DNA from: Candidatus Portnoybacteria bacterium RIFCSPLOWO2_01_FULL_43_11
GTDB lineage: Bacteria; Patescibacteriota; Minisyncoccia; Portnoybacterales; UBA2143
Length of the DNA stretch: 64,000 nt
Assembly (NCBI GenBank): GCA_001819605.1
Contig: MHNE01000017.1
Span: 10-64,009, forward strand
Direction of reading: 5' to 3'
Position 1 is the first letter of the stretch, and the number at the start of each line of letters is the position of its first letter. The notes beneath the pieces are model-generated. The model was given only the letters and a program-made list of their open reading frames with translations, was not told the origin of the DNA and did no database searches. Both the position numbers and the translations under genes were made by a program. Shown here in pieces: positions 48,651-63,557 of the stretch.

Positions 48651-49814
48651 TTATTTTTCAAGCAGGTCGTAAATTCTCTGAAAATAATTATTCCAAGTGG
48701 AATTGGTCAGATCTATTTTTGCCGATACTTCGGTTTCAAGGGCCTTTTCAAGACCTTGGGTAAAATCATCAATATTGGGATTTGCCAAAAAAACCAAAGG
48801 GTGATTTAGAACCGGCTCTTCCGCTTCAGTGGTCCAGACAACTTTTTTCCCAAAAGCCAGCGCTTCATAAGGAGTAATCCCTGAAGTTGTCCAACTGGGA
48901 AAAGCAAAAATATCACAGCCGGCGTAATAATCATATAAATCTTTATCGTCAATAAAGCCGGCAAAAATGACTTTATCTGTTAAATTGAGCTGTTTGACTA
49001 AATTTTTTAAATTTTCCTCTTCCGGCCCCCGGCCGCCGATAACAAGAACCGCGTCCTTGTGTTTTTCGGCTAATTGATGAAAACATTTTATCAATAAATC
49101 AATCCTCTTTCTTTTGTCTAAACGGCCAACGCTTAAGATAATTTTTTTGTCCCGCAACTGATATTTTTGCCTTATATCTTCCTTTGACTCATGTTTAAAT
49201 ATCTCCGGATTCAGACAACCTCTTGAAATAACCGCCTCTACTCCGTATAGTTTTTCAACCTCCCATTTAATCTGCTTGGTTAAAACAATAACCTTGGCGC
49301 TTTTTCTGATGGCCAAATAATCCAAAAAAGATTTCAGCTCTAAAACCATTCTTTTGTACGGATTTATTTTCGGCGCTTGGGCCGGGATAAATTCCCGATG
49401 GCCGATTAAGCTGTTTCTGATTTGATGAAAAACTCTTTTATGAATCAGAGAGTATTTATAAGGATTGTCAAGAAACCAAAACATAGTGCCGTGCAAATGC
49501 GTGAGATAAGGAATATTAAGACGGGTTAAATACAAAAGATGGCTGTCGCCGGCTGATTGAGCGATAATATAATCCGGCTTAATTTCTTTTAATCTTTTTC
49601 TTAATTGATATAATCTTTTTAAAAACCCTCCGTCTTTAATTGTTTCTAAATCTATTAGATTTGAATAGTTAAAAAGAGCGGCTGGATTAAATCTAAAAGT
49701 TAAAATTTTAACCCGATACCCTTTTTGGGTTAGAAATTTAGCCTCTTCAAACATCAGCCGTTCGGCTCCGCCCGGGTTAAGGATCGCGTTATAAAATAAG
49801 ACAACGGTTTTCAT
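48651..49814 (-). CDS. Family 4 glycosyltransferase
   Basis: GT-B architecture. C-terminal FPSWTTSGITPYEALAFGKKVVWT. Confidence 0.75.
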   Translation of the reverse strand: MKTVVLFYNAILNPGGAERLMFEEAKFLTQKGYRVKILTFRFNPAALFNYSNLIDLETIKDGGFLKRLYQLRKRLKEIKPDYIIAQSAGDSHLLYLTRLNIPYLTHLHGTMFWFLDNPYKYSLIHKRVFHQIRNSLIGHREFIPAQAPKINPYKRMVLELKSFLDYLAIRKSAKVIVLTKQIKWEVEKLYGVEAVISRGCLNPEIFKHESKEDIRQKYQLRDKKIILSVGRLDKRKRIDLLIKCFHQLAEKHKDAVLVIGGRGPEEENLKNLVKQLNLTDKVIFAGFIDDKDLYDYYAGCDIFAFPSWTTSGITPYEALAFGKKVVWTTEAEEPVLNHPLVFLANPNIDDFTQGLEKALETEVSAKIDLTNSTWNNYFQRIYDLLEK

Positions 49815-50863
49815 TTAAACTGCTCAATAATTTTAACGACTAAATTGTCTAAATTGTGATTTTTGACCACTTCGGCTCTTAATTTTTCCTGTATTTGTTT
49901 TTTTGCTTCTTTGTCTAAATTCATCACCCATTTGATTTTTTCAGTTAAAAATTTCGGATTATTTTCTTCAACCATTAAATTATTATTAAGAATATTAACA
50001 AAGGCCTCATTAGAAGTTAAAACTATTTTTTCACAGGCCATTGCCTCTAAAACACTTTTATCAACGCTTCCTGTCTGGCTAAGGTTAATAAATAAATCGC
50101 AGTTCTCATAATAAAATTGAATCTCGCGGTGCGGGACCGGCCCGATAAACTTAATATAATTTCCCAAATTATTTCCGCTGACCATTTTTTTTAAATTTTT
50201 AAAATATGTTTTATGCTCTTTTAGTCCCGGGCCGCCGATAATCTGAACTTCTAATCCGCCGGCTGGCGGACTATCTTTAACCAAAATATCTACGGCCTTT
50301 ATCAAAGTCTCGTAATCTTTTATTGGTGAAATTCTCCCTATTGAAAGTATTTTAAATTTTGAATTTTTAACTTTTAACTTTGAACTTTGAACTTTGAACT
50401 TATCTACGTTTATCCCGTGCCCCGCCACCTCAATCTTTTTCCTGTTTTTTAAGCGGCAGCTTTCTTCTGAAGCGGTTAAAATTTTGTCGGTCAATAAATT
50501 AACTAAATATAATTTCCAATTTACCGCTTTGTGAGCGTACCAAGAAACAACTTTTCTGCTGAATAACTTAGCGATTGGCGCGGCTAAAATTGTGTATTCC
50601 GGATTCATGTGACAAAACAAGCCGTCTATTTTCCTGATATTTTTAAAAACTAATTTCTTAAATTCCATAATCCTGCCTATTTTTGATTTTTTAGTCAAAT
50701 TAAAAACTTTTATATTTTCCGGCAAATCTGAAATATCGCCTTTCTGCCAGGCAATCACCCGCAATTCATCAACGGCTTGGCCGATTTTAAAAACCCAGTC
50801 ATAAGCAAAACCGGCCAAAGGGTCGTTTTTATCAACTTTTCTCGTAATCATCAATAAACGCAT
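49811..50863 (-). CDS. Family 4 glycosyltransferase (contains a 7-bp tandem repeat in the interdomain linker)
   Basis: SQTGSVDKSVLEAMACEKIVLTSN. The start was set to MRLLMITRK (50863), which avoids a 28-bp overlap. The ORF-track start is 50896. Confidence 0.75.
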   Translation of the reverse strand: MRLLMITRKVDKNDPLAGFAYDWVFKIGQAVDELRVIAWQKGDISDLPENIKVFNLTKKSKIGRIMEFKKLVFKNIRKIDGLFCHMNPEYTILAAPIAKLFSRKVVSWYAHKAVNWKLYLVNLLTDKILTASEESCRLKNRKKIEVAGHGINVDKFKVQSSKLKVKNSKFKILSIGRISPIKDYETLIKAVDILVKDSPPAGGLEVQIIGGPGLKEHKTYFKNLKKMVSGNNLGNYIKFIGPVPHREIQFYYENCDLFINLSQTGSVDKSVLEAMACEKIVLTSNEAFVNILNNNLMVEENNPKFLTEKIKWVMNLDKEAKKQIQEKLRAEVVKNHNLDNLVVKIIEQFK

Positions 50864-50868
50864 AAATT

Positions 50869-51978
50869 CTAAATGTTGATTATCTCCATCAGCCATGGTC
50901 GGGTTAAATAATTTATCAAAACATAAATAATTAAAATAATTGCGATAAGATATTTCTTTTTTAATCTTGATAATCCGTAACCGCTAATCATCGCCAACCA
51001 GGGAACAAGAATAAAAGCGATTCTTTGAGTGAGGCCGGGCCAAGCCAAAAAAGAAACAGAGGCGGGAAGAATGGCCAATAAAATTTTAGCTCTTTCTTTA
51101 TTAAAGTTTCTATATTCCTGATACAAACCGAAAATAAAAATAGGCCAACCCGCCAAAAAAAGCCAGCCCAAAATCTTAATCAATAATAAAAAGCTCCAGT
51201 CAATGCCCGGCGCGGCCGGGTTATTAATAACTTCTTTAAAAGAAAAACCATACCAATTAAGATAAGAAAAACCAAGCCGCCAATAAATAAACAAATGATA
51301 AAAGCCGGGAATGATTAAAAATAAAACAGCGGCTTTTAAAATCTTCTTCATTCTATTTAAGAAATTTTCCGGCAGAAAAAGAATAAGAATACCCAAGGGA
51401 ATCATACCTAAAGCGCCGTATTCTTTGAATAAAACTCCGATTGAAGCCGAAAGAATCGCCAAATAATAATTTTTTTTGTTGTTTGGGTTATTAAAAAATT
51501 TAACAGCCAGTAGGGTGGTCAGTAAAAAGAAAAACCAGCCGCCGATGTCAGTCCGATAAGTAACTCCGTAATTAATCATAGCGTAATTGGTAAAAAATAA
51601 AACTGCGCCACAAAAAGCTGTCCGGTGACTCTGATAAATCAAGTAAACTAATTTATAAAAAATAAAAATTATCAAAAAATAAAAAACAATATTAACCAAA
51701 AGCATGCCGTTGTATTCGCCGCCGGCCAGCTTGCCCAAGGCAATGGAGCTGTAAAGCATTAAAGGAGTGGTTAAAATTCTGGTTTTTAGAAAAACTTCCA
51801 TGTTTTCGTCGTAATCCGCTTTGTCGTATTCCCGGCCTTGTAAAAATTTCATAGCCGCCAAATAAGTGGGAGCGTCTCCGTTTAATTTTAACGGATAGGG
51901 CAAAAGAGAAAAAGCAATAACTAAATTTAAAATCACTAAAACAGATATAAAAAAATAAGGAGATTCAATGATTTTCAT
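50869..51978 (-). CDS. Polytopic membrane protein (GT-C- or polymerase-like; function unknown)
   Basis: 369 aa with about 10 TM helices, embedded among GT4 genes. Confidence 0.4.
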   Translation of the reverse strand: MKIIESPYFFISVLVILNLVIAFSLLPYPLKLNGDAPTYLAAMKFLQGREYDKADYDENMEVFLKTRILTTPLMLYSSIALGKLAGGEYNGMLLVNIVFYFLIIFIFYKLVYLIYQSHRTAFCGAVLFFTNYAMINYGVTYRTDIGGWFFFLLTTLLAVKFFNNPNNKKNYYLAILSASIGVLFKEYGALGMIPLGILILFLPENFLNRMKKILKAAVLFLIIPGFYHLFIYWRLGFSYLNWYGFSFKEVINNPAAPGIDWSFLLLIKILGWLFLAGWPIFIFGLYQEYRNFNKERAKILLAILPASVSFLAWPGLTQRIAFILVPWLAMISGYGLSRLKKKYLIAIILIIYVLINYLTRPWLMEIINI

Positions 51979-58582: not shown

Positions 58583-59776
58583 ATGGCTGAAAAATCAACT
58601 TGTTCGCAAAAGAGAGTCTTATATGTCATTACCAAATCAGTCTGGGGCGGAGCCGCCAAGTATGTTTATGATTTATCCACTTGCCTTTCAAAAGAAAATT
58701 TTGAGGTATTTATAGCGGCTGGCCCAGCGCCTAAAAAAGCCCGTTATGGAAAAGGAAATCAGGGAAAATTCGCCCAAAAAATCAAGGAAGCCGGCCTTCC
58801 TTATCTTAATATTTCCAGTTTTCAAAGAAGCGTCAATCCTCTAAAAGACATTTTTGCCTTCTTTGAAATATTGATTCTGCTTTTAAAAATAAAACCGGAT
58901 GTCATCCATGTCAACAGCCCTAAAGCCGGCGGGATCACCGGAGTGGCCGCTTTTATTTATAAAATTCTATATAAAACTCATATTGTCTACACTCCCCACG
59001 GCTGGGCCGTAAATGAAGACAGACCTAAATGGCAGATTTTTTTAATTAAATTTTTCAGTAAATTAACCTGCTTATTCTATGACCGGATAATCTGCGTTTC
59101 TGAATACGATAAAAAAATAGCTTTTGAAAATAATATTGCGCCGTCTTATAAAATAACTTTGATTCATGTGAGTATCACTCCTAAAAATATATTATTTCTT
59201 CCCCGTCAGGAGGCCCAAAAAAAATTACTCAACGGTAAAATATCTCCTCTGGTTATCGGAACAATCGCTGAATGGAATAAAAATAAAGGATTATTTTTTC
59301 TCCTTGAAGCGATAATAAAAATTAAGCCATTGATTAAAGAGTTTGATGTAGTTTTAATCGGCAGCGGAGAAAACGCGGATAAAGTTAAAATGTATGATTT
59401 TGTCAAAAAGAATAATTTAGAAAATGTTCATTTAATAGAATGGATTGACCAGGCCGCGGCTTATTTAAAAGCCCTTGATATTTTTGTCCTTCCTTCAATT
59501 AAGGAAGGTTTTCCTTATTCCATTCTTGAAGCCATGGCCGCAGAACTACCGATCATTACAACGCCGGCCGGCGGTATTCCAGAAGTTATTGAAAATAATA
59601 TTAACGGAATTTTAGTCCATTCAAAAAACAGCCAAGAAATAGCTGAAAAAATCCTTTATTTAATAAATAATCCGGAAATCGGCCGCGAATTGGCAAAAAA
59701 AGCGAAAGAAAAAGTTGAAAAAGAATTCAGCTTGGAAAAAATGGTCAAAGAAACAGAAAAGATTTATTCTATTTGA
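58583..59776 (+). CDS. Family 4 glycosyltransferase
   Basis: RVLYVITKSVWGGAAKYV and KEGFPYSILEAMAAELPIITTPAGGIPEV. Confidence 0.8.
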   Translation: MAEKSTCSQKRVLYVITKSVWGGAAKYVYDLSTCLSKENFEVFIAAGPAPKKARYGKGNQGKFAQKIKEAGLPYLNISSFQRSVNPLKDIFAFFEILILLLKIKPDVIHVNSPKAGGITGVAAFIYKILYKTHIVYTPHGWAVNEDRPKWQIFLIKFFSKLTCLFYDRIICVSEYDKKIAFENNIAPSYKITLIHVSITPKNILFLPRQEAQKKLLNGKISPLVIGTIAEWNKNKGLFFLLEAIIKIKPLIKEFDVVLIGSGENADKVKMYDFVKKNNLENVHLIEWIDQAAAYLKALDIFVLPSIKEGFPYSILEAMAAELPIITTPAGGIPEVIENNINGILVHSKNSQEIAEKILYLINNPEIGRELAKKAKEKVEKEFSLEKMVKETEKIYSI

Positions 59777-61583
59777 CCTCTTTTTCTATATCCTTTAATT
59801 CCTTGCCCACGAATCTCTCGGCGTCGTCTAAATCTTTCTTAAGCTGTTTGAGAATCTTTTGCTCCTCTTTTGTCAGGCCTCTTTTATTCCTGGTTTTTTC
59901 AAGCAGTTTAATCTGCTCCTGAATTTCCTCCCTTAACAAATTAAAGGCCTTATGAAGCGCCTGCTCCGCTTCTCCCACTTCTTTTCTTAATCTTTTTTTG
60001 AAAAGATTGAATTTATGCCAGCCGTACCAAACCACAAATAACATTAAAACAATAAGCGCTATAATAGGAACCGCTACTGAAAGCAAATTTATCGTCTTGG
60101 ATCCGATTCGCAAAAAAGCTGAAGGTTTTACTGCGATAGTTATCTTTTCCGTGGGCAAGCTCTTGGCGCCTCTTTCATCCATTACTTCAGCCCAAAATCC
60201 ATAGACTCCATCTTTTGGTTTTTCATCAGCCGCGAAAATAAAATTACCATCTTTATCGCTTCTGGTTGTCCGGCTTTTAGCGGCCTCATCCTGACGCTCT
60301 AACCCCGTTATAATTTGAGCACTTGGATATTCATCCTGACGCTCTAGCCACGCTATAATTTGAGCGTTTGGATACTTAGTCGTTCCTTTGATAATTAGCT
60401 GCTCTCCGCTCTCTAATTCTTTTGGCCATTCAGTGATAAAAGGCGATTCTAATGGTTCAATAATAAATTCCACTGAATTAGCCAAGCTGTTGCCGGCTCT
60501 GTCTGTGGCTTTCGCAATTAAAATATGCTTGCCCGGCCATAAAACGGCTGTCTCGTAAATATGACGGCCGTCATCTTGCCAGATCTCCGGGCTTTTAGCG
60601 TCAATCTGAATCTCATAAAAATCAATACCGGAAGTTTTATCCTCCGCGTTAAAAACAAATTTTGCTTTTGGTTCGGTTAAATCCTCGCGGATAATTTCTT
60701 TAATTTCAAAATAGTCCGGTTTTTGGCTGTCAATCTGAAACCGGAAATGAGAAACCTCTCCCCAACCAGCCTGATTTTTAAAACGAGCGTGAAAATACCA
60801 GACTCCGTCATTTAAGCCCGAGATTTCTTTAGATGAAACAGGAGGAATATAAGATGTTATTGGAACAGCGCTGGGAAGTTCGCCGACCAAAAGCCGAACG
60901 CCCGTTACATTTTCCGGCAGGTCCCAGGTAAATTTGGGATTATTTTCTCTATACCACTTATTGGGATCAGGGTGCGTTGACGAAGAAATGCGCGGCGCCA
61001 AAGGAACGCCGGCCGCTTCAGAAGGCGTTGTCGCTTCCGGCGCCGAAGGACCGGCCGCGCCAAAAGAGAAACCAGCTCCTCCCAAACTGGCTAAAATATT
61101 TGTTCCCTTGCCGTCATTGGCCAGAACCGAACCGGAAGAAAAAGTCAAAGCCGCTGAACCGGCCGCTTTTATCTTAAAATTAACCGTAATGATTTTTCCC
61201 AACGAACCGATAAAACCCGGATTTAAAATAATTCCCTCAAAATTGACCGTGCCAACTGAATTAGAAAATGACGGCTCCTGAACCCAAAGAGTTATTATTG
61301 AACCGGCTTTGGAAATTCCAGTAACTTCCAGCTTATCCGGCGGATATGAAATAATGCCGGAAGCCGCGTTCATTGCCTGATCCGGACTTGAAGTATAGAT
61401 ACTGACGGAGAATGCGCCGCCGACTCCGTAAGAACCGGAAGAAGGAGAAAAATAAAGGCTCGCGGCATTCGCCGCTTTGCCTAAAACACTAAACAACACG
61501 AATAGGAACACAAAAAGACACAAACACAAAATAATTTTCGTGTAGTTTCGTGTTAGTATTTGTGTCTTTTCGTGTTTTATCAT
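59769..61583 (-). CDS. Secreted, C-terminally membrane-anchored cohesin-like domain protein with a cytoplasmic coiled-coil tail
   Basis: Signal peptide ...FSVLGKAANA. A cohesin-like module LYFSPSSGSYGVGGAFSVSIY...VNFEGIILNPGF...FKIKAAG, then an STHPDPNKWY segment, a TM helix (LLSVAVPIIALIVLMLFVVWYGW) and a K/E-rich tail. The start at 61583 forms an ATGA overlap with the upstream stop. Confidence 0.6.
   Translation of the reverse strand: MIKHEKTQILTRNYTKIILCLCLFVFLFVLFSVLGKAANAASLYFSPSSGSYGVGGAFSVSIYTSSPDQAMNAASGIISYPPDKLEVTGISKAGSIITLWVQEPSFSNSVGTVNFEGIILNPGFIGSLGKIITVNFKIKAAGSAALTFSSGSVLANDGKGTNILASLGGAGFSFGAAGPSAPEATTPSEAAGVPLAPRISSSTHPDPNKWYRENNPKFTWDLPENVTGVRLLVGELPSAVPITSYIPPVSSKEISGLNDGVWYFHARFKNQAGWGEVSHFRFQIDSQKPDYFEIKEIIREDLTEPKAKFVFNAEDKTSGIDFYEIQIDAKSPEIWQDDGRHIYETAVLWPGKHILIAKATDRAGNSLANSVEFIIEPLESPFITEWPKELESGEQLIIKGTTKYPNAQIIAWLERQDEYPSAQIITGLERQDEAAKSRTTRSDKDGNFIFAADEKPKDGVYGFWAEVMDERGAKSLPTEKITIAVKPSAFLRIGSKTINLLSVAVPIIALIVLMLFVVWYGWHKFNLFKKRLRKEVGEAEQALHKAFNLLREEIQEQIKLLEKTRNKRGLTKEEQKILKQLKKDLDDAERFVGKELKDIEKEVK
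60286..60375 (-). repeat. 45-bp in-frame tandem duplication (2 copies)
   Basis: 60286..60330 and 60331..60375 are near-identical. They encode YPSAQIITGLERQDE and YPNAQIIAWLERQDE. Confidence 0.8.
61496..61575. repeat. Imperfect palindrome built from ACAC(G/A)AA / TT(C/T)GTGT heptamers at the gene junction
   Basis: Plus-strand ACACRAA at 61496, 61508, 61518 and 61524. TTYGTGT at 61537, 61547, 61559 and 61569. The 17-nt arms 61508..61524 and 61559..61575 are complementary at 16 of 17 positions, and the mismatch gives a G-U pair in RNA. Confidence 0.65.
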
Positions 61584-62527
61584 GTTTTTGTCTGCGAATG
61601 TCTCTTTCGTAAAACTTTTTTCATAATGTAAAAAATAAATGCAACGCCTAATATAATTATAACCCAAATTTCATACCTTTCATACCATCTAAGCGGATAT
61701 TTCGGAAGCAGTATTTCTATTCTTTCATTGCCCGCTTTGTCAATTGCTTTAATGTAGATCCAGCTTTTAAGCCCTTGGTCTTTTAAAATATACGGACTCT
61801 CTACCTTAATCCATTTATTCGTGTCTATTCGTGTTTCATCTATTTTTCGTGTTGTTTCGTGGACAAAATATCCGGCCATACCGGATATTTTGTCTTGAGT
61901 GGTAAAAACCAAAGACCATTTATTTTCAAAAAGCATGGGGTCGCGGGTAATTTCCGGTTTAAAGGTTTCCGGCGGCTCATTATCTTGGGATTCAATAATA
62001 ATATTTTCCTTGCCCTTGATAATCGGGAGTCTCATTTCTTCAAGCTCAAGCTCGTCTTCTATGCCGTAAGGAGTATTAAGATAGATTTTAGTTTTCTCTT
62101 TGTTAAAACTCAAAACTCCAATACCTATTTCTTTTTCAGCTTTTAATTTTACAATCAGAAGCGGCGCCCCCTCCCCCTTAAAGCCGCCCGGAATAATTCC
62201 CGAAAAGGTTAAGAGCCGGCTGGCTTCGTCAAAATGGGGTTTTTCAAGCCAGAGATTTATAATGGAACTGCCGTCGTTCGTGTCAATAGGAGTTAATTCC
62301 TCTGAAACAAAAATCGCCAAAGAAATAGCGTTAACCGGTTCTTCCGCGTCAATATTCAGCACGGCTGAAAATTCGTCTTTTTCGCCTATTACCTGCTCCT
62401 GCGGCTCGAAATACAGTCTGGCCGCCTCCGCTACTCTGACCGTAAAAATGAGGAACGAAAAAATAAAAATGTAAAATGACAATGAAAAATTCAAAATTAT
62501 TCTTTTAGGTTTTGAAAATTCGGTCAT
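61580..62527 (-). CDS. Secreted cohesin-like domain protein with a C-terminal TM anchor
   Basis: Signal peptide ...FTVRVAEA. LYFEPQEQVIG...INLWLEKPHF...LTFSGIIPGGF...VKLKAEKEIG parallels the module in 59769..61583. C-terminal TM helix IWVIIILGVAFIFYIM. Confidence 0.5.
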   Translation of the reverse strand: MTEFSKPKRIILNFSLSFYIFIFSFLIFTVRVAEAARLYFEPQEQVIGEKDEFSAVLNIDAEEPVNAISLAIFVSEELTPIDTNDGSSIINLWLEKPHFDEASRLLTFSGIIPGGFKGEGAPLLIVKLKAEKEIGIGVLSFNKEKTKIYLNTPYGIEDELELEEMRLPIIKGKENIIIESQDNEPPETFKPEITRDPMLFENKWSLVFTTQDKISGMAGYFVHETTRKIDETRIDTNKWIKVESPYILKDQGLKSWIYIKAIDKAGNERIEILLPKYPLRWYERYEIWVIIILGVAFIFYIMKKVLRKRHSQTKT

Positions 62528-62588
62528 TGGAATTTGTTTAGAAATTAGGATTTAGAAATTAGAAATTCTGGACCGGCTAAAATAAATT

Positions 62589-63557
62589 TTAGCCGGTCCA
62601 GTAGTACGCCATTATTGAAAAATCAATCAAATCAATTCTGTTATCGCCGTTTAAGTCAACTGTCTTCGGGGGATTCGGTCTTTTGTACCAATAAGCGGCA
62701 ATAGAAAAATCAACCAAATTTACCTTTTTATCATTATTTAAATCACCCTCTTTTTCCCGGCTCGGGCTTGGCTCTGCCGCTGTAGTTTTTGTTCCGACTT
62801 TAAAGCCGAGCACCTTACTGAACGAGCTGATTAAATTTTCAAGCGAAGATTTTGATTTTGTAAAATGCTGGCCAAATTCAAGAGGCGAGGTGTCAAAATT
62901 ATACAAATACACCCCATCCTTGTCAGCGGGCGTTTTTGCGAAAAACTCCTCGTCTGAATTTACCGATATGGTAATTTCAGAACTTGGCGCGCTTTGCCCA
63001 AAAATCGCGATGTTGTCGCCGCGTTTAACTTCACTCTTATCAACCGCAATAGTGGGCGCAATGAAAACGCCACCAATGTTCGTGGTGGCGCCGGAAGTTA
63101 CGCTTACCGGAAAAGTTAAAAGAGATGAGCGAACACCCTTGTTGTCTTCGCTATAGACGGAAAAAATATAATTTCCGCCCGAAAGCCCGGAAAGAGTTAC
63201 CGTAAAATTCGCGTCCGCGCCGGCAATAGTGGTTGCGGCAATTTGAGCGTCTTTAAGAAGTGTGACCGCGCTTTTAGGATACGCGCGGCCGGAGAAAATC
63301 GCGCTGGTCACGGGGGCTATTATTCCTCCGCCCCCGCCGCCTCCACCGCCACCCCCGCCGCATTGTCCACAATCAGCCGAACAAGACGAGCAGGTTTCAG
63401 AACCGTTGCAGGAACCGTCCCCGCAAGAGGACGACTGAATAACCGTTACCGTTAAGGTAGGATTTTCCGCGCTGACTTTAGAAGTTAGAAAATAAAGGGT
63501 AGAAAATAGAAGAATTATTAAGAAAATAGAAAGTAGAAAGTAGAAATTTTGAGACAT
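62589..63557 (-). CDS. Secreted protein with a Cys-rich module, a Gly12 linker, Ig-like region(s) and a C-terminal dockerin
   Basis: Signal peptide ...LTSKVSA. Cys-rich module CGDGSCNGSETCSSCSADCGQC, then 12 consecutive Gly. Two F-hand repeats, DLNNDKKVNLVD and DLNGDNRIDLID, each followed by FSI(A/M)AY(W/Y). Confidence 0.7.
   Translation of the reverse strand: MSQNFYFLLSIFLIILLFSTLYFLTSKVSAENPTLTVTVIQSSSCGDGSCNGSETCSSCSADCGQCGGGGGGGGGGGGIIAPVTSAIFSGRAYPKSAVTLLKDAQIAATTIAGADANFTVTLSGLSGGNYIFSVYSEDNKGVRSSLLTFPVSVTSGATTNIGGVFIAPTIAVDKSEVKRGDNIAIFGQSAPSSEITISVNSDEEFFAKTPADKDGVYLYNFDTSPLEFGQHFTKSKSSLENLISSFSKVLGFKVGTKTTAAEPSPSREKEGDLNNDKKVNLVDFSIAAYWYKRPNPPKTVDLNGDNRIDLIDFSIMAYYWTG

Follow-up and report, generated by a model that had tools for sequence, protein, structure and literature searches.

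Why should a single heptanucleotide recur, at regular spacing, inside the reading frames of two overlapping genes for surface proteins? The case arises in a 64,000-nt stretch of the genome of Candidatus Portnoybacteria bacterium RIFCSPLOWO2_01_FULL_43_11 (contig MHNE01000017.1, positions 10 to 64,009; this whole stretch is the window, and its own numbering is used throughout). ACACGAA, or TTCGTGT on the plus strand, is found there in two clusters, cluster A at the junction of gene 1 and gene 2 and cluster B within gene 1 (Table 1). The window sequence is represented in Patescibacteria MAGs from the Rifle aquifer (GCA_001819655.1 and GCA_001821675.1). The answer proposed here, at a probability of roughly 0.6, is that both clusters are copies, lacking an open reading frame (ORF), of the cis-acting arms of a GxxExxY (TIGR04256/PF13366) cassette, and that they have been absorbed into the reading frames of their hosts.

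Is the heptamer really concentrated here? The original prediction had listed its copies, and all of the coordinates are correct; one additional copy with six of seven matches, ACACTAA at 61486, was absent from that list. Across the window as a whole, the nine exact copies of TTCGTGT/ACACGAA do not amount to an excess over the 3.9 expected from shuffled sequence. Eight of them, however, fall within 788 bp (61496-62283), where 0.048 would be expected (Poisson P ~7e-16), and when one mismatch is allowed, kilobase 61 has 13 copies and every other kilobase three or fewer. The over-representation that had been proposed as a check is therefore local only. Adjacent copies do stand 10 bp apart, five times rather than the three first counted, and they group as three arms of four, spaced 10-12-10 or 10-18-10. 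The copy at 62277, previously included with the others, sits in the conserved peptide IDTNDG and is probably unrelated to the arrays.

On the sense (minus) strand the heptamer is read in all three frames, as CAC-GAA, ACA-CGA and xAC-ACG-AAx, giving the peptides H-E, T-R and x-T-K/N. It uses CGA, the rarest arginine codon of the window (7%), along with ACA (20% of threonine codons) and CAC (30% of histidine codons), and the probability of these codon choices given the peptides is ~3e-9. Because three frames are read and rare codons are used, a repeated peptide does not explain the heptamers, and the earlier claims of three-frame reading, CGA use and repetition at the nucleotide rather than the peptide level are all upheld, the last of them also by the orthologs described below. 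The Poisson and codon probabilities reject chance and codon bias as the source of the clusters.

In cluster A, the sense arm, ACACGAA(61575-61569)-AAG-ACACAAA-TACTA-ACACGAA-ACT-ACACGAA, encodes KHEKTQILTRNYTK, the charged n-region of the predicted signal peptide of gene 2. The inverted arm, which reads TTTGTGT-TTGTGT-CTT-TTTGTGT-TCCTA-TTCGTGT-TGT-TTAGTGT on the sense strand, encodes LCLCLFVFLFVLFSV, the hydrophobic h-region, and the predicted cleavage motif, ANA followed by AS, comes next. The whole product, MIK-HEKTQILTRNYTK-IILCLCLFVFLFVLFSVLGKAANA with AS after an AxA-type cleavage motif, has the n-region, h-region and AxA site of a signal peptide and would presumably serve gene 2 as one. 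An inverted-repeat search gives arms of 43 nt each, 77% complementary, with 12 nt between them. In the mRNA, the predicted stem begins 7 nt past the A of the gene 2 AUG, and an outer 7-bp helix pairs the AUG region itself (61580-61586) with 61495-61501. The sense hairpin has a predicted dG of -38.3 kcal/mol (z = -4.09; none of 200 shuffles folds as well), and the antisense fold is weaker (-31.5, z -2.69). The proposed 17-bp pairing just after the coupled start codon is thus present, and it extends to 21 bp plus the outer helix that includes the AUG. Inspection of the sequence on either side of cluster A showed no evident target-site duplication.

Cluster B reads CACGAA-ACA-ACACGAA-(11 nt)-ACACGAA-TAG-ACACGAA on the sense strand and encodes HETTRKIDETRIDTN, which in the AlphaFold 2 model of gene 1 forms the end of a beta-strand and the loop to the next strand (strand 217-225, coil 226-235, strand 240-242). 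The same 10-18-10 spacing is found in the ortholog of cluster B in locus L051. Among gene 1 homologs this loop is an indel hotspot, ranging from about 10 residues up to long insertions, and that of L024 contains a palindromic TAGAA/TCCTA array in frame. A separate perfect palindrome abuts the cluster (Table 1), for which about 0.002 occurrences would be expected by chance in 64 kb, on our own rough estimate. A similar but imperfect palindrome was seen by eye in L013 only, among the gene 1 homologs compared at cluster B.

What, then, connects these arrays with GxxExxY? Among the best 120 homologs of gene 1, sixteen are 433-470 residues long, and 12 of these carry PF13366 (GxxExxY). The other four carry PF05635/PF22296, the four-helix-bundle protein of 23S rRNA intervening sequences (IVS), and in all seven long homologs that were aligned the added domain is N-terminal. 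In Patescibacteria (the candidate phyla radiation, CPR), CAC[G/T/A]AA arrays flank GxxExxY genes in all six loci examined, with sense copies 5' and inverted copies 3' and with ACACGAA, ACACTAA and ACACAAA as variants. Three of these loci are syntenic and have GxxExxY inserted in front of a gene 1 homolog (L051, L037 and L172); the other three (L367, L368 and L369) lie in unrelated contexts, one adjoining a tRNA-synthetase gene, one within a pilus operon and one preceding an uncharacterised gene. Profile searches assign the cassette ORFs to TIGR04256 and the neighbouring four-helix-bundle ORFs to TIGR02436. In L051, a Portnoybacteria contig, the order is dockerin gene, GxxExxY ORF and gene 1 homolog. 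An ACACGAA array lies upstream of the GxxExxY ORF and across its start, a sense-plus-inverted hairpin 3' of the ORF supplies the N-terminal codons of the gene 1 homolog, and more arrays are present as an in-frame palindromic insertion in that homolog and at the cluster B site. L172, whose homolog is 44% identical, repeats this pattern, including in-frame palindromic insertions, and adds a 4+4 hairpin with 10-12-10 spacing at the gene 1/gene 2 junction, which encodes MENIHETTLNRTRIHAKLLCIFVFIFVWFSVLPSIARA; it has equivalents of both cluster A and cluster B, both at the window positions. L037 is arranged similarly, and in L368 a direct duplication of about 38 nt places one copy of the sense arm on each side of the ORF.

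The window arrays share the core motif CAC[G/A/T]AA with these true cassette flanks, and cluster A also fits their order of arms, sense 5' and inverted 3', whereas cluster B has no inverted partner. In the window region and 12 CPR-type loci, start-to-start spacings of 10 (77 times) and 12 (24 times) were counted, so the 10-bp phasing of the original prediction is stereotyped well beyond this locus. Four-copy arms are also rare, occurring only eight times in 622 kb of related loci and not at all in shuffled sequence. The comparison extended to four plasmid-borne GxxExxY genes of phyla outside the CPR, and in three of the four there are inverted motifs on both sides: CACAGAG arrays in Bacteroides and Bernardetia, the 3' ones inverted, and a single CACGGA/TCCGTG inverted pair in Treponema. 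In Gemmatirosa, a CGCGGAT hairpin array is found on the 3' side only. The four-helix-bundle ORFs of the same CPR loci have flanks of their own, built from TAGAA/TAGGA, GGGACTA or TTTGTAA. The literature searched yielded no paper on these repeats and no function for the GxxExxY family, and a PDB sequence search with GxxExxY returned nothing useful. In L369 and L172, GxxExxY and four-helix-bundle ORFs are interspersed among the genes of the dockerin/cohesin-like cluster and of a pilus operon (T2SSF, prepilin peptidase, pilins); operons that encode surface or secreted proteins seem to be preferred by the cassettes.

Comparison of orthologs shows how such arrays come and go. The gene 2 orthologs L172, L273, L290, L049 and P0333 have an array N-terminus. 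In five orthologous sense arms, identity stands at 91% for the positions of the heptamers and at 37% for the spacers, where several of the changes alter amino acids. Taken as heptamers versus spacers, conservation in the orthologs agrees with the nucleotide-level constraint of the original prediction. On the other hand, a regex screen of the 120 gene 2 homologs that are closest (55-67% identical) finds no ACACGAA-type N-terminus in 117. Signal peptides of the ordinary short kind, for example MEKTQKIKF... and MAKIYKIAL..., are the rule among these, and several have N-termini resembling the products of arrays of other motifs. Array-bearing orthologs may indeed use other motifs at the same sites (TAGAA, CACTAA, ACGAAT), and in L170 and L171 cluster B has the ACGCGAA variant in several copies at once, a concerted switch of the heptamer. 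In P0254, a gene 2 ortholog that is 64% identical, a GxxExxY domain followed by TINTNKKLNNTKK stands at exactly the cluster A site; P0254 and cluster A are a filled and an empty version of the site. Presence and absence among orthologs, together with the variable cluster B loop, mark the arrays as insertions that sit where the genes tolerate them, not as something that the gene pair conserves; once present, the heptamers are kept.

A further array was noticed in the gene 1 family. Two gene 1 homologs (L051 1651-1688 and L053 4442-4479) have, at one shared position and in frame, an inverted four-heptamer arm with common spacers (e.g., ...VSIRADISVPSWV...). It makes a third array site in the family and is absent from the window.

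How might such arms have become part of two proteins? GxxExxY cassettes are small elements with a PD-(D/E)XK-like ORF, built like rRNA intervening sequences and common between CPR genes. Their canonical arm consists of four ACACGAA-type heptamers in the form H-N3-H-N5-H-N3-H, making two 10-bp pairs 12 bp apart with a super-period of 22 bp, with the sense arms 5', overlapping the start of the ORF, and the inverted arms 3' of it. Cluster A would then be a complete 4+4 hairpin with an empty loop that was taken into the reading frame of gene 2, the A/C-rich arm providing a K/R/H/T-rich n-region and its complement an F/V/L/C-rich h-region. Cluster B would be one direct arm without a partner, translated in frame as the strand end and adjoining surface loop of gene 1. 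The heptamers would persist through protein recognition, possibly by the GxxExxY protein or by a host factor; with 10-12-10 phasing, the heptamers share one face of a helix, and the free spacers also fit such recognition, so a protein may bind the arrays. The inverted arms may also form an RNase III-type stem, as in the 23S rRNA IVS; the arms would act as protein-binding sites, as RNase III stems or as both. A stem placed just 3' of the coupled AUG probably ties the initiation of gene 2 to ribosomes coming from gene 1, and such a coupling effect may well be a consequence of the arrays and not their origin.

A broader and quite tentative extension is that the genes of GxxExxY and four-helix-bundle proteins, two very abundant and uncharacterised families of small proteins, are site-specific cassettes, that their periodic repeat arms are attachment and processing sites in operons, an mRNA counterpart of the rRNA intervening sequences, that empty hairpins such as cluster A are landing pads and that the palindromes are a recurrent source of new signal peptides for surface proteins of the CPR. 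The last of these suggestions follows from the fact that one arm encodes a K/R/T/H-rich peptide and its complement an F/V/L/C-rich one.

Several observations weigh against a cassette origin. No GxxExxY or four-helix-bundle ORF is present in the window or in the L001 flank (phmmer and hmmsearch), so that the link to the cassettes is drawn by comparison with other loci. A metagenome scan for four-copy CACGAA arms, which was uncontrolled, returned at least 120 loci on contigs with a GC content of 0.29-0.68. Among the 120 matches listed, a detectable GxxExxY ORF is found at one locus, 16 lie inside long ORFs and most are intergenic hairpins without an ORF, many of them with an inverted arm near. 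Since so few of these arms adjoin GxxExxY, the arms may be autonomous and the cassettes only occasional companions. The four-helix-bundle ORFs combine the same architecture with motifs of a different kind, a point against the view that the ORF product reads the motif. The helices of the CPR hairpins are formed by heptamer on heptamer, the spacers being mostly non-complementary, and the sense fold is more stable than the antisense in five of seven hairpins, by small margins; with spacers mostly unpaired and strand asymmetry weak, selection for an RNA stem is not demonstrated. Finally, the history of the arrays could be either one ancestral gain followed by losses or repeated gains.

If the arms are indeed autonomous, the arrays would be a mobile or selfish unit in their own right, akin to MITEs (miniature transposable elements with inverted repeats) or repetitive extragenic palindromes, moved in trans and inserted in frame, in which GxxExxY genes sometimes lodge. 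The abundance of ORF-less hairpins in the metagenome would be expected of such a unit, as would several arrays on a single contig (L205 is an example), the presence and absence among orthologs and the in-frame palindromic insertions of L051 and L172. This origin is nevertheless unlikely. The 64-kb window has a single arm-bearing locus, and the many near-identical copies by which a MITE is known were not found, the remaining 63 kb of the window holding one other heptamer. The arms of one genome, that of L172, differ in their spacers and so are not copy-and-paste copies of each other, and no target-site duplication was seen at the flanks of cluster A. Nor does the breadth of the scans argue for one universal ACACGAA family: in viral contigs, three copies of ACACGAA gave 79 matches, heterogeneous 10-nt tandem repeats with none adjoining a GxxExxY or four-helix-bundle ORF, but permuted heptamers gave 36 and 54, showing that 10-nt tandem arrays are generally common.

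Alternatively, the hairpin of cluster A could have evolved in place as a device for translational coupling or attenuation, the stem from +7 and the AUG helix limiting gene 2 to ribosomes from gene 1, with the heptamers incidental. The fold is stable (z -4.1), the genes overlap by ATGA, no evident Shine-Dalgarno sequence was found upstream of the gene 2 start by inspection, and RNA folding predicts equivalent hairpins for this junction in L172, L273 and L290. Yet this would leave cluster B, the stereotyped arm and the GxxExxY link unexplained, the hairpin is absent from most orthologs, and its helices of heptamer on heptamer with unpaired spacers offer no compensatory evidence beyond the repeats themselves. 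An origin of the arrays in coupling is accordingly improbable.

Could the arrays be a regulatory site instead? The operators of OmpR/PhoB response regulators consist of tandem direct repeats with a 7-bp conserved core and a short spacer, in a super-period of about 22 bp. A dimer of this type, bound to the 10-bp direct repeats, might drive gene 2 from an internal promoter. The 10-bp pairs with their 22-bp super-period do resemble tandem pho-box-like sites, conserved heptamers with free spacers are a signature of protein binding, and a sigma-70-like ATGAAA-16-TATAAT (61683..61656, minus strand) lies between the clusters. However, this is the only reasonable site of its kind; the arrays neither adjoin nor overlap its -35 element, lying inside ORFs, one cluster about 170-210 nt upstream of the putative start site and the other 66-165 nt downstream of it, and the promoter scan barely exceeded shuffled sequence (7 versus 3.5 +/- 1.9). 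Unlike OmpR/PhoB operators, the arrays have no fixed position relative to a promoter, are inverted as 4+4 around an ORF and occur at many unrelated loci, and no cognate regulator was identified for them. The original prediction had suggested binding sites of winged-helix regulators and a control point for translational coupling or a protein-binding platform. A winged-helix regulator is not indicated, and an operator or coupling device specific to this locus is not supported: the same arms flank GxxExxY genes in all six CPR loci examined, the unrelated ones included, 117 homologs showed no ACACGAA-type N-terminus in the screen, and orthologous arrays may carry unrelated motifs at the same sites. 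An operator of this kind seems decidedly doubtful.

Phase variation, by which the 10-nt units would slip in replication and switch both surface-protein genes, is very improbable and was rejected: the unit is no multiple of 3 and the repeats lie in the signal-peptide region of surface proteins, as do the CTCTT repeats of Neisseria opa genes, but slippage is unlikely with non-identical units and differing spacers, ten population contigs obtained from different samples agree completely (100% identity) across 61400-62600 and so give no sign of variation in repeat length, and the sole frameshift variant (L007) lies outside the arrays, elsewhere in gene 2. In that variant, the Ala/Pro-rich linker of the gene has lost 35 nt (window ~60977-61011), which splits the gene into two ORFs and leaves the heptamer arrays unchanged; in L005, the same linker region contains an N-gap.

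Returning to a cassette origin, the closest described relative is the 23S rRNA IVS. In that of Coxiella burnetii, RNase III cuts a terminal stem of 28 bp, and directly upstream of the S23p ORF there are tandem GACAGAT heptamers, the number of which differs between strains (PMC4990558). Insertions with and without ORFs are known from CPR rRNA genes (J Bacteriol 2024, PMC11270868), and 23S_rRNA_IVP genes have been located between cas genes (PMC3936711). As in the 23S IVS, a small ORF stands (in the cassettes) between terminal inverted repeats that form a long stem, ORF-less versions exist, here in the window, and the stem is at least 20 bp long, being 21 bp in cluster A by prediction. The four-helix-bundle ORFs with short-repeat arrays, which share CPR loci with the cassettes studied, provide a further link. 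The differences are that the host is an mRNA or operon and its coding sequence rather than an rRNA helix, that the ORF family is GxxExxY and not S23p, with no ORF in the window, and that the arm is stereotyped as four 7-mers at 10-12-10. RNase III cutting is known for the Coxiella IVS, whereas the stem in the window is known from predicted folding. Rfam covariance models matched no family at the arrays, giving only generic miRNA-hairpin noise, and no rRNA match.

Rickettsia palindromic elements are in-frame palindromic repeats of protein genes, translated at tolerated positions (PMC10969869), and they share with the arrays the in-frame palindromes and the presence and absence among orthologs. 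They differ in forming multi-copy families of about 150 bp conserved over their full length, whereas in the arrays only heptamers and spacing are conserved, one locus is found in the window, and one array gives a predicted signal peptide, not an internal insertion. Heptamer direct repeats in sets of 2-6 near gene starts are also known from unrelated phyla, as the short tandemly repeated repetitive (STRR) sequences of cyanobacteria and the TAACTGA repeats of Beggiatoaceae (PMC4679880). Those repeats are contiguous, with a 7-nt period, mostly intergenic and without a reported inverted partner or cassette ORF, unlike the ACACGAA arms with their 3- and 5-nt spacers and inverted partner. The window has an STRR-like repeat of its own at 50358-50401, a contiguous tandem (AAGTTCA)3(AAGTTAA)2... 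that is read in frame (KFKVQSSKLKVKNSKFK) in a 361-residue ORF (49811..50896, minus strand) adjoining glycosyltransferase genes.

Table 1. Features of the array locus, in window coordinates.
Feature	Position	Strand	Description
Gene 1	61580..62527	minus	315 residues; host of cluster B
Gene 2	59769..61583	minus	604 residues; host of cluster A; predicted array-encoded signal peptide
ATGA overlap	61580..61583	minus	gene 1 stop TGA 61582-61580 and gene 2 start ATG 61583-61581
Cluster A, 5' (sense) arm	61537..61575	minus	four heptamers, spaced 10-12-10
Cluster A, 3' (inverted) arm	61486..61530	minus	spaced 10-12-10
Predicted mRNA hairpin	61495..61586	minus	21-bp stem, 61556-61576 with 61507-61527
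Cluster B, direct-only arm	61818..61862	minus	four heptamers, spaced 10-18-10; without inverted partner
Perfect 14-bp palindrome	61862..61894	minus	GACAAAATATCCGG / CCGGATATTTTGTC, 5-nt loop; in frame as DKISGMAGYFV; abuts cluster B
TTCGTGT, exact copies	61537, 61547, 61569, 61818, 61828, 61846, 62277	plus	
ACACGAA, exact inverted copy	61496	plus	
Copies with 6/7 matches	TTCGTGG 61856; TTTGTGT 61559; ACACAAA 61508, 61518, 61524	plus	
Isolated heptamer	62277..62283	minus	GAC ACG AAC = D T N in conserved peptide IDTNDG

The two host genes were originally labelled cohesin-like. For gene 2 this holds as a sub-threshold match (E = 0.0016) beside a Big_13 domain; the Pfam search with gene 1 gave no match. 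The AlphaFold 2 model of gene 1 (mean pLDDT, the predicted local distance difference test score, 80) has a helix at the N-terminus (7-29), then mostly beta-strand and a C-terminal helix (279-314) that is consistent with a membrane anchor. Upstream of gene 1 lies a gene with dockerin and Big_6 domains (62589..63557, minus strand).

Other repeats are found around these genes. Five plus-strand copies of TAGAA/TAGAAA (63480-63546) are antisense to the signal-peptide codons (FYFLLSIFLIILLFSTLYFL) of the dockerin/Big_6 gene, and since the TAGAA class of motif also flanks four-helix-bundle (TIGR02436) ORFs in L024, L049, L046 and L369, the signal peptide of a second surface protein looks array-derived. 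Between the dockerin gene and gene 1, a tandem TTTAGAAATTAGGA/TTTAGAAATTAGAA at 62537-62564 reads on the sense strand as a TTCTAA-type arm without an ORF, and much the same arrangement, nearly identical, precedes the gene 1 homolog of L053. A perfect 15-bp hairpin at 62568-62601, the 5' arm of which consists of the final codons of the dockerin gene (W-T-G-stop), has a terminator-like score with a weak T tail. It is kept in L053 with a compensatory change, ACTGGC/GCCAGT, and shorter versions stand just before the ACACGAA arrays of L051 and L037. Farther away, at ~52-54 kb of the window (L001 14976-16619), genes for an N6_N4 methyltransferase and an EcoO109I-like restriction endonuclease adjoin the glycosyltransferase cluster; the recognition site of EcoO109I, RGGNCCY, is unrelated to the heptamer.

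What would a cassette origin mean, if true? The GxxExxY family would gain a defined cis-element, four copies of ACACGAA at 10-12-10, inverted around the ORF, that would tie it mechanistically to the four-helix-bundle/IVS elements. For annotation, the arrays would account for odd N-terminal extensions and for fused "GxxExxY-cohesin" gene calls. For the organism itself, selfish palindromic repeats would be read as the signal peptide of one protein and a surface loop of another, and in an ultra-small bacterium this may offer a simple route to new secretion signals.

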